This document shows, one piece after another, positions 1,517-8,211 of a DNA stretch of 13,180 nucleotides (position 1 is the stretch's first letter; the number at the start of each line of letters is the position of its first letter). Source of the DNA: a virus (Duplodnaviria; Heunggongvirae; Uroviricota; Caudoviricetes); the IMG/VR virus record IMGVR_UViG_3300032074_000001, one strand, 5' to 3'. A model generated the notes under the pieces. That model was not told the origin of the DNA. It was given only the letters and a program-made list of their open reading frames with translations, and did not search any database. The position numbers and the translations under genes were made by a program.

Positions 1517-1716
1517 TTCGTCTTCTCCTCGTTGTACTTGGCCGCGTAAGTGGCCGACTTGATGTTTTGGTAGGGGGCGCTGAAACCACGAGGGAAGGCG
1601 TGGTCACAGGCTTGGCAGACCCAGAACAGAATCCCGTCGTAGACACCACGGATCTCCATGCCGAAGAACAGGTTCTGGTCGGTGTTGCCGCACTGGGGGC
1701 AGGTCAGATCGTCCAT
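1513..1716 (-). CDS. Small zinc-ribbon protein (67 aa, CPQC...CQAC)
   Basis: ATG at 1716 coupled to upstream TGA (TGATG); two CxxC pairs flanking GVYDGILFWVC. Confidence 0.8.
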   Translation of the reverse strand: MDDLTCPQCGNTDQNLFFGMEIRGVYDGILFWVCQACDHAFPRGFSAPYQNIKSATYAAKYNEEKTK

Positions 1717-2333
1717 CAGTTGCCCGCCATGTCTTCCAACTTGCTCTGCCACTGACAGGCAGCCCATCCGGCTCCGATGCCAACCCAGACCCAAGGAGCA
1801 CCGGGTCCAGAGCTAGCTCCAGTAGCGATAGCACCACCGACGCCGACGCCAGCGAGACCACCGCAGAACACGGCCTTCACGTCATCCCTGGTCCAGTTGG
1901 CGTTGTCCGGGAACGCACGAACTGGACCATCGCAGGTCCAGGCAGAGGTACTCGGGGAAGAACCGCTGACCTTGAAGTAGCAGTTGTCGTGGCTGGTGAA
2001 GTTGCGCCACATCTGTGCTCGGGTGAGGGAACCACCATCACCAATGGTGGTTCGGTGAGCACGCTGGAAGTGCATCAGCTTGTCCAGGATGACTCGCTTG
2101 GCCTTCGCGCTGTAGCGCATGTTCCTGGGTGCGTGTCCCAGGTGATGGTGCTTGAACTTTCGGACTCCCTCACGGGGAGTGTGGACAGTGCCAGTGCAGC
2201 TGGACTGACCATCTGGACACATGGCAGATGCCTTGTCCGCGATCACTCCTACGAGTGATCCGATGATCACGCACAGCAACACGAAGAGGATGCCTGTCTT
2301 CCAGGTCAGCCCCTTCTTGATCGCCTTGCTCAT
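1716..2333 (-). CDS. Secreted/membrane protein with Sec signal peptide and C-terminal Gly-rich hydrophobic hairpin (205 aa)
   Basis: SD GAAGGAG 6 nt before ATG 2333; basic n-region, h-region TGILFVLLCVIIGSLVGVI, ASA cleavage-like site; six Cys in mature part. Confidence 0.85.
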   Translation of the reverse strand: MSKAIKKGLTWKTGILFVLLCVIIGSLVGVIADKASAMCPDGQSSCTGTVHTPREGVRKFKHHHLGHAPRNMRYSAKAKRVILDKLMHFQRAHRTTIGDGGSLTRAQMWRNFTSHDNCYFKVSGSSPSTSAWTCDGPVRAFPDNANWTRDDVKAVFCGGLAGVGVGGAIATGASSGPGAPWVWVGIGAGWAACQWQSKLEDMAGN

Positions 2334-2365
2334 GTCTGTCTCCTTCAGACGTGGTGTGGACATGC

Positions 2366-2397
2366 AAAAAGCCCCAGAGGTGTTACCTCTGGGGCTT
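2366..2397 (-). terminator. Intrinsic terminator
   Basis: Perfect 13-bp stem AAGCCCCAGAGGT/ACCTCTGGGGCTT with 3-nt loop, ending in TTTTT on the minus strand. Confidence 0.85.
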
Positions 2398-2483
2398 CCG
2401 CAGTTGATGGGGTCCAGTTCGCCAGAGGTCAAGCCTCTGGGTACTTGCTGTCCCTGCTAGAGACAGTCCTCTCCCGTCAACTG
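2366..2483 (-). ncRNA. Candidate structured leader RNA / attenuator (RNA-A, ~118 nt)
   Basis: Begins at predicted TSS of PL1; closing stem 2473-2483/2401-2411, hairpins 2448-2466 and 2422-2440, then terminator; no ORF. Confidence 0.5.
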
Positions 2484-2488
2484 AGATA

Positions 2489-2517
2489 AGTGTACCACAA
2501 ACACTCTATACACACAA
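2489..2517 (-). promoter_or_regulatory. Leftward sigma70/SigA-type promoter PL1
   Basis: -35 TTGTGT (2517-2512), 17-nt spacer, TGn-extended -10 TACACT (2494-2489). Confidence 0.7.
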
Positions 2518-2561
2518 CAACCCCCAGGTTTCCCGTGGTTAGGGCGTTCTTCTGGGGGTTG
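2518..2561 (-). terminator. Hairpin / probable terminator directly upstream of PL1
   Basis: 10-bp inverted repeat CAACCCCCAG (2518-2527)/CTGGGGGTTG (2552-2561); minus-strand tail TTGTGTGT. Confidence 0.5.
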
Positions 2562-2781
2562 AGGGCATCTCTCCAGGACGAGTCGCCTAGCTGGATCACT
2601 CCTTGACGAGAGGTTCGGCATGATTCCTGGAGCACTGCTACTTCTCCCCAGAGTCGTCATCTGACTGGGTTAGACCGGTGATCCTCCTGTACTTCGCCGT
2701 CACTCTGGACAGGTACTTGGCAGGGGATCTGTGGTCTTCGCTCGGTCCATCTCACGTTGGTGAGGTGCAGATCGAGCTGAT
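2518..2781 (-). ncRNA. Candidate structured RNA (RNA-B, ~265 nt); strand uncertain
   Basis: Lies between PL2 and the 2518-2561 hairpin; several 7-8 bp complementary pairs; no credible CDS. Confidence 0.35.
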
Positions 2782-2801
2782 GTGAAGACTATAACACATC
2801 A
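2778..2801. promoter_or_regulatory. Palindromic operator candidate TGATGTG-N10-CACATCA
   Basis: Perfect 7-bp inverted repeat whose spacer contains the PL2 -10 box. Confidence 0.5.
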
Positions 2802-2816
2802 CATACACAACCACAA
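2788..2816 (-). promoter_or_regulatory. Leftward promoter PL2
   Basis: -35 TTGTGG (2816-2811), 17-nt spacer, TGn-extended -10 TATAGT (2793-2788). Confidence 0.7.
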
Positions 2817-3165: not shown

Positions 3166-3254
3166 GCTTACCGGTACTTGATGACTGGTGTTGTTCTGTG
3201 TCATCCTGTCCGTGCCTCGTGTAGATGGCGCTCGATCTCTCGCGACGGGATCGT

Positions 3255-3294
3255 AGAAAGCCCCCAGTCCGCTCTGGACGGGGGCTTTCTCTTT
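3255..3294 (+). terminator. Intrinsic terminator (possibly bidirectional)
   Basis: AGAAAGCCCCC/GGGGGCTTTCT stem extended by GTCC/GGAC; plus-strand tail CTTTCTCTTT. Confidence 0.75.
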
Positions 3295-3320
3295 GGAGCA
3301 GACGGTCATACCATCGAGTG

Positions 3321-3692
3321 GTGCCTCTGGTCTTCCGTCGATCCCGTTCCGTGGTGTTCCACAAGGTCGAGGACTGCCCGCAGCTCACCAAGGCCCCGGC
3401 ACGCGGCACACAGAAGCCGCTGGAGACGGTCGATCTGGACCTGATCGCGCTGCCGAAGCCGTGCAAGACCTGCTACTCCGACGCCCCTCGGGGCAAGTTC
3501 GCACGACGGTACTGCCCGCTGTGCAACAAGAACGGTCGCATCCGCCCATGCGCCCACAACGGTGGAGTCAAGGTCACCATCGCGCAGACCACCAACTACC
3601 TGAGTCTGCTGCGTGATCCCGGTGATGAGTACACCAGGGCCATCTGGGTGTGGCCGGATCGTGCCCATCGGTACGAACCTGTTGCATCGTAA
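3321..3692 (+). CDS. Cys/His-rich zinc-binding protein (~123 aa), probably leaderless
   Basis: HKVEDC, CKTC, CPLC, CAHNGG motifs; -10 TACCAT (3309-3314) lies 6 nt before GTG 3321; start uncertain. Confidence 0.75.
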   Translation: MPLVFRRSRSVVFHKVEDCPQLTKAPARGTQKPLETVDLDLIALPKPCKTCYSDAPRGKFARRYCPLCNKNGRIRPCAHNGGVKVTIAQTTNYLSLLRDPGDEYTRAIWVWPDRAHRYEPVAS

Positions 3693-8098: not shown

Positions 8099-8171
8099 TG
8101 GGACGTAGCTCAGCTGGCAGAGCGCCCGACTGTTAATCGGGTGGTCGCAGGTTCGAATCCTGCCGTCTCAG
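8099..8171 (+). tRNA. tRNA-Asn (GTT), CCA not encoded
   Basis: Acceptor TGGGACG/CGTCTCA, D arm, anticodon arm CCCGA-CTGTTAA-TCGGG, T loop GGTTCGAATCC, discriminator G. Confidence 0.96.
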
Positions 8172-8173
8172 CG

Positions 8174-8211
8174 AGAAGGCGAGTGTGATGTGGGTCCACT
8201 CGCCTTCTTTT
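8174..8211 (+). terminator. Intrinsic terminator after tRNA
   Basis: 12-bp stem AGAAGGCGAGTG/CACTCGCCTTCT followed by T run. Confidence 0.8.

Follow-up and report, generated by a model that had tools for sequence, protein, structure and literature searches.

In the PR'-qut-tR'/Q region of lambda, and also in phage 82, a host-type promoter is combined with a promoter-proximal elemental pause and a short RNA terminated before the first gene, and the lambda and phage 82 PR' pauses are the same elemental pause used for Q loading (PMC5001585). The elemental pause in the lambda Q/qut range falls at ~+16 to +25. In systems of the RfaH/ops type and of the NusG paralogs LoaP and UpxY, consensus pause flanks (GG...YG) accompany conserved central non-template bases (PMC5995543), and a factor reads through leader terminators (PMC7819879). 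HK022, a phage without an N-like gene, has a structured RNA (putL, putR) right behind an early promoter, and a pause has been proposed for putL (PMC9378689). The PeSL cassettes of T4-type phages are repeated units of promoter and stem-loop in a variable early region (PMC2839356), and classical attenuators and riboswitches carry a terminator in the 5' leader before the first gene. Here we describe a cassette from a family of uncultured, soil-type phages that resembles each of these systems in part of the features just named.

A predicted terminated leader ahead of the first leftward gene

The window, by which we mean the whole 13,180-nt stretch of DNA analysed, corresponds to C1:23478-36657 of a virus record of 40.6 kb (62% GC, about half complete). 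From a non-coding region of ~1 kb, the genes for DnaB, primase and DnaE are read to the right, and a large number of small, uncharacterised genes to the left. The cultured-phage helicases closest to that of the window belong to Gordonia and Brevibacterium phages (27–28% identity), which makes an actinobacterial host likely. No tyrosine integrase was found in four records.

The leftward promoter PL1 (2489..2517; this and the following features lie on the minus strand) is of the host sigma-A type with an extended -10: the -35 box TTGTGT (2512-2517) is separated by 17 bp from the -10 box TACACT (2489-2494), with the extended TG at 2496-2497 (TG-n-TACACT). The predicted +1 is A2482. A conserved initially transcribed block, +1..+19 (2464..2482), carries an elemental pause consensus. 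The closing stem P1 (2473-2483/2401-2411, span 2401..2483) starts at +1, contains one C.A mismatch and encloses two hairpins, P2 (2459-2466/2448-2455, span 2448..2466), which is an optional insert, and P3 (2434-2440/2422-2428, span 2418..2445 with its flanks), which is flanked by an AGUAC/CGAA internal loop. The intrinsic terminator (2358..2397) has a stem of 11 bp (2385-2395/2371-2381), or a perfect 13 bp once the flanking AA/UU are counted, a 3-nt loop, U5 at 2366-2370 and a GCATGTCC-like tail. The promoter, the stems of the three-way junction and the terminator of the initial annotation all lie where it had placed them on this strand. It had also described a ~118-nt RNA with a perfect terminator ~32 nt before the ATG; we obtain a predicted terminated RNA of 117 nt and a distance of 32 nt between the U-tract and the ATG at 2333. 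Both the start site and the termination are predictions from the letters of the DNA.

The 122-nt RNA folds at -62.8 kcal/mol, as compared with -39.3 ± 3.9 kcal/mol for shuffles (z -6.0), and the leader without the terminator reaches z -3.5 against shuffles. A generic scanner missed both the PL1 promoter and the terminator, the latter probably as some of the U-tract is taken up in the stem. Between 2326 and 2410 no hexamer combines A at position 2 with T at position 6, so that no second sigma-A-type promoter fits before the ATG, as had been claimed. A TTGACG at +3..+8 was considered as the -35 box of a second promoter and rejected; no -10 follows it and the hexamer varies. Given a promoter that leads into a terminated leader with no internal promoter visible, dependence of the leftward operon on read-through past the leader terminator is supported. 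The stronger statement of the initial annotation, that the whole operon is gated, goes too far, as two further promoters on this arm each come with a cassette.

The first gated gene (1716..2346 including its ribosome-binding site at 2339-2346; ATG 2333) encodes a 205-aa product with a hydrophobic N-terminus and no Pfam or PHROG match. The first gene behind the cassette differs between relatives.

Recurrence of the cassette in related phages

Relatives were gathered through the helicase and the adjacent zinc protein and were scanned with a promoter matrix seeded with copies having the +1 motif. The PL1 promoter class was found about 26 times. The resulting cassettes, about 26 in number, are spread over 12 related phage records, and the genome of the window has three. 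They share one layout, in which the promoter is followed by the conserved +1..+19 block, then by a 5' stem whose pairs covary, and the intrinsic terminator stands ahead of the first gene; every cassette precedes a ribosome site and a gene. The two further copies in the window's genome (C1:22369 and 18386, minus strand) share with PL1 the promoter and the first 13-15 transcribed bases. In both, the three-way junction is reduced to a simple hairpin, which is followed by the terminator. In the complete genome G001, three such promoters were found, all leftward and each with a terminator.

Across the family, the short RNAs are predicted to be 67-121 nt long. Many of the terminator stems have only 9-11 bp and the longest, which are near-perfect, have up to 17 bp; a U-rich tract lies 3' of the stem in nearly every copy. 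The U-tracts are imperfect (mostly 4-6 U among the first 8 nt), and at imperfect tracts termination by mycobacterial polymerase is efficient (PMC3993855). Of random 135-nt windows, 1.7% contain a terminator like those of the cassettes. Most cassette terminators have a YATGYC-like tail behind the U-tract (2358-2365 in the window), which is seldom seen in the structural-gene region. Extra terminators without a detected promoter, GC-rich hairpins followed by U-tracts, lie between left-arm genes at L052 (three), L054 (at least two) and L056 and in G001 and G002.

The matrix also recovered ~10 sites with other 5' sequences that still have a terminator within ~130 nt, and three upstream PL2-type promoters without one in that distance. 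As judged from these predictions, nearly all of the strong early left-arm promoters found have a putative pause signal, a 5' stem and a stop signal before the first gene. In the more distant relative G004 (L050, 3900-4140), PL1 leads directly into a single long hairpin whose tail is short and U-rich, and it is the upstream promoter that has a leader similar to the main class.

BLAST searches of the control region and leader against cultured phages gave no match or only generic terminator fragments, and the cassette was not recognised in the divergent regions of phages Chidiebere and Cantare. Pattern scans of viral, metagenome and genome collections returned mostly chance matches, the real ones being only L024 and the G001 and G002 copies.

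Conservation of the leader

Covariation in homologs, which the initial annotation had proposed to look for, is present in P1. Among 10 homologs, 94% of the P1 cells are paired and four pairs are changed on both sides; the +6 pair, for example, alternates between A-U and G-C. The covariation score, somewhat inflated by the relatedness of the sequences, is 0.316 as compared with 0.211 ± 0.025 for shuffled alignments, and none of 500 shuffles reaches it. Slid registers give far lower covariation. On this comparative evidence P1 is a real RNA helix.

The interior of P1 is variable, ranging from an 8-10 nt loop through a two-way helix to a three-way junction, and the three-way junction is not conserved across cassettes. 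At the P2 site, L054 and L065 have hairpins of other sequence and L001, L052 and L069 have none. The AGUAC and GAA around P3 are invariant in four orthologs although the enclosed stem differs, and the AGUAC/CGAA loop, which may be a loop-E-like motif, is absent from the other cassettes examined.

The 5' strand of P1 is more conserved in sequence than its partner (0.94 versus 0.75). Conservation sets in sharply at +1, the discriminator (-6..-1) being variable, and positions +11..+15 are conserved irrespective of their pairing (pairing probability 0.10-1.00). The sharp onset and the retention of +11..+15 whether paired or unpaired point to a function of these bases in DNA or in the nascent RNA:DNA hybrid. 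Covariation of the 3' partner strand led us to reject a pure DNA operator as the only function, and recent duplication was rejected as the source of conservation because the discriminator is free to vary. A search of four genomes for antisense partners that could act in trans on the conserved strand gave no outstanding candidate.

A pause consensus at +18

The consensus of the elemental pause consists of GG, six free bases, tg, Y, R and ccc (PMC9974457). In the window it is matched by G2475 and G2474 (+8/+9), T2465 (+18, the predicted RNA 3' end) and G2464 (+19). The combination G+9, Y+18 and R+19 occurs in this fixed register in 22 of the 26 cassettes, as against at most 5 at other offsets and a genomic background of 6-7%, a match that was noticed post hoc and in which 21 of the 26 copies form one cluster related by descent. 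Positions +18 and +19 were in no search seed. Within the 22, +18 is only T or C, +19 only G or A and +20..+22 mostly pyrimidines, while +16 and +17 vary; this variation is the degeneracy that the consensus allows. We infer from the match that polymerase pauses at +18, with the purine-rich segment +8..+15 as a candidate site of factor loading.

A likeness to RfaH/ops is found at L055, where a different 5' sequence contains a complete ops-type 12-mer ending in the same +18/+19 register. The exact ops core GGCGGTAG occurs in the initially transcribed region at L055 (9284-9297, minus strand) and L052 (2027, minus strand); of these two cassettes, that of L055 is in the pause register, and it is the only one with the full element in register. 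In the window, +10 and +15 are both G, so there is no ops core with a C3:G8 non-template hairpin. A sigma-dependent -10-like repeat is absent from the window copy and from 17 of the 22 copies.

The motif is also frequent at +17..+19 of PL2-type promoters, the majority of which have no terminator close by, and it may therefore serve promoter escape or folding. The divergent promoter PR has no consistent +18 motif.

Other elements of the control region and the search for a factor

Upstream of PL1, the promoter PL2 (-35 2811-2816, -10 2788-2793) precedes a ~265-nt non-coding RNA (2518..2816 with the promoter, minus strand), which ends in a conserved hairpin abutting the PL1 -35 box and having a conserved, multi-part loop. 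The structured PL2 RNA is seen in the window (2518-2790, minus strand) and at L001 (3790-4010), L003 (4020-4220) and L054 (9150-9520); among its conserved modules are a hairpin led by GGAAGUAC, which relatives have close to the 5' end, and a CACAGUGAUG-like stretch. It could be a separate phage RNA or an in-cis antiterminator. Between PL2 and PR, a block of ~110 bp, possibly a replication origin or another RNA, is strongly conserved at L001 (4130-4240), L003, L052, L054, L056 and L067 and diverged in the window's phage (~2830-3010).

The rightward PR cassette (3178..3292, plus strand) has an order similar to that of the leftward cassettes: promoter (TTGATG 3178-3183, CATCCT 3202-3207), hairpin whose loop reads GCGACG (3242-3247), terminator (3260-3292) and first gene. 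The GCGACG loop also lies just upstream of a terminator at L003, L052, L054 and L075, on different stems. This loop motif, kept in at least five phages on differing stems, resembles a boxB-type protein site. Farther right in the window, a tRNA gene (8099-8171, plus strand; Rfam 71.6 bits, anticodon GTT) is followed by a terminator-like hairpin (8187-8210) directly upstream of dnaE, and dnaE may therefore also depend on read-through. At L065 (6286-6492) and at one further locus, a gene with a Pfam Acb5 (anti-CBASS) match lies just behind dnaB.

The first gene behind PR (3312..3692, plus strand, start uncertain) encodes a protein with two zinc sites. It has at least 126 homologs with invariant Cys/His residues and lies upstream of dnaB at every locus examined. 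No clear Pfam, PDB or cultured-phage match was found, nor did sequence searches of solved structures and the Atlas give one. Its model (pLDDT 93.7) gave no clear match in fold searches either (best Z 3.1), the likeness to the Ada zinc domain being faint (Z 2.5). We regard this protein as a candidate regulator.

Among phage-encoded proteins, the NusG domain PF02357 is absent from five phage records, four of which carry the cassette (one complete, one 99% complete). The Q family PF06530 is absent from G000, G001, G002 and G004 in a search that a very remote homolog could escape, and Pfam and PHROG scans of G001 gave no Q family member. No antiterminator family is represented among 46 mostly non-structural G001 proteins, and no ANTAR homolog was found. 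The first genes of both divergent operons appear to be gated; a factor must therefore come from leak-through or from the host.

A proposed checkpoint and its alternatives

We propose that the cassette is a factor-dependent antitermination checkpoint on early phage promoters, similar to those of lambda Q and RfaH, at which a predicted factor loads on paused polymerase. Host RNA polymerase would start at +1 (2482) and pause at the +18 elemental pause, which would expose the conserved purine-rich non-template strand +8..+15. Without the factor, elongation would resume, P1 would close over the 5' end and the adjacent terminator would release a short RNA with a protected 5' end as the default product. 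A phage-encoded or host factor would load at the pause, perhaps also gripping P1 or the AGUAC/CGAA loop, and the loaded polymerase would then pass the leader terminator and the promoter-less terminators further down the operon. We give this reading about an even chance, since no factor was found. The comparison of sequences establishes the arrangement of the cassette, the pairing of P1, the fixed register of the pause consensus and the lack of a conserved alternative helix, whereas an active promoter, a polymerase that pauses and terminates, and a factor that regulates it are inferred. The genes behind the cassettes probably need a read-through factor rather than an RNA folding switch. More tentatively, and with clearly less confidence, we suggest that a previously undescribed processive antiterminator, possibly the zinc protein or the leader RNA, without sequence relation to Q or NusG, loads on actinobacterial-type polymerase at the ops-like +18 pause of early promoters.

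The checkpoint has to be weighed against an unregulated dosage device, in which constitutively leaky terminators damp strong promoters and P1 only shields the 5' end from decay. The imperfect U-tracts, a P1 that starts at +1 and tolerates any interior, and the failure of the searches to find a factor are all consistent with it. However, it leaves the fixed register of the pause, the purines at +11..+15 and the GCGACG loop at PR unexplained, and leak across several serial terminators would fall steeply. We consider a dosage device unlikely.

Less likely again is an RNA-only antiterminator of the put type, whereby the P1 leader would bind polymerase and confer resistance to downstream terminators. 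The structured RNA directly behind the promoter with its more conserved 5' strand would fit, as would the lack of a protein factor in our searches, and a promoter-proximal pause has been proposed to aid the folding of putL (PMC9378689). But the fold of putL is fixed, with two stems in ~74 nt that make many specific contacts, whereas the cassette interior varies from a short loop to a three-way junction, and a constitutive RNA signal right beside its own terminator would be self-cancelling.

If the short terminated RNAs were themselves the product, as stable decoys or regulatory small RNAs, the genes would be fed by leak-through or by PL2 transcripts. A 5' stem with a terminator would give the RNA stability, non-coding RNAs form an array in the region and the internal loop is kept in four orthologs. 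Yet P1 hides the conserved strand, four genomes offer no outstanding trans target, size and interior vary freely, and a ribosome site and gene stand behind every cassette, so that we find this explanation improbable.

The initial annotation had proposed a switch, either an attenuator with alternative 1:2, 2:3 and 3:4 pairings or a riboswitch in the three-way junction. Several of its observations stand. The 8-bp 2:3 complement is present in the window copy, with a chance of about 1% for one cassette (a rough estimate), and P3 and the terminator share a core. No leader peptide is visible, the window having only a 7-codon frame from a UUG at +3 without a ribosome site. The Rfam search that it had suggested gave nothing over the leader at E up to 10 and, among the seven homolog loci also searched, nothing near the gathering score, in agreement with its statement that no known riboswitch matches but against the riboswitch reading itself.

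The attenuator logic is unsupported by energetics, by conservation and by pairing against shuffles. Formation of the 2:3 helix breaks both P1 and P3, which close before segment 3 is made. A forced 2:3 fold lies +5.6 kcal/mol above the default at the nascent stage, before the terminator can form, and costs 14 kcal/mol once it can; in the nascent leader P(2:3) is <0.001 and P(1:2) is 0.998. No alternative helix is conserved: the 8-nt complement between leader and terminator occurs in the window copy alone of 21 cassettes, the 20 others having at most 5 nt, and none of the 21 leaders pairs with the 5' arm of its own terminator better than shuffles do (window p = 0.21). The shared core is not maintained either, since the ortholog L001 retains the P3 core but differs in its terminator, and L003 lacks P3 but still has the terminator 3' arm. 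A switch of this kind is scarcely credible.

Equally hard to credit is that the second hairpin is an RNase-processing or stabilising structure and no terminator: long near-perfect stems of up to 17 bp beside P1 would suit it, and RNase III sites are known behind early promoters of T7 and SPO1, but nearly all copies have a U-rich tract behind the stem and many stems have only 9-11 bp.

Comparison with known systems

In a limited literature search we found no description of processive antitermination in actinobacterial phages. The cassette measures ~150 bp and includes a predicted fixed pause, a terminator and ~26 natural variants, so that purified polymerase or a reporter would suffice to test it, without the phage. 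Any factor that exists has no detectable similarity to Q or NusG and could represent both a new way of modifying RNA polymerase and a switchable component for expression in actinobacteria; should read-through be no more than leakage, this would be an ordinary attenuating cassette.

At the sequence level, the cassette shares with lambda Q/qut a promoter, a short RNA and a terminator ahead of the first gene, and the pause match at +18 lies within the lambda Q/qut range. In contrast to lambda Q, the genes behind the cassette are early or accessory genes, each genome has at least three copies, the terminator adjoins a 5' stem that covaries, most copies lack a -10-like repeat and no Q homolog was found. 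With respect to RfaH/ops, the consensus pause flanks (GG...YG) are shared, but the window copy has neither the ops core nor its hairpin pair, and no phage NusG domain was found. Unlike in HK022 put, the cassette interior is variable and the second stem has a U-tract and is terminator-like; the 5' strand of putL, compared without alignment, shares with the cassette only a coincidental 4-nt GACG. The PeSL stem-loop is described as stopping transcripts that come from upstream of the cassette (PMC2839356), whereas here the cassette's own start site precedes the terminator. From attenuators and riboswitches the cassette differs in having no leader peptide, conserved antiterminator helix, conserved aptamer core or Rfam match. 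On the features tested it therefore falls outside the Q, RfaH, PeSL, attenuator and riboswitch groups, but its predicted mode of action would be that of an antitermination cassette of the Q/ops type.
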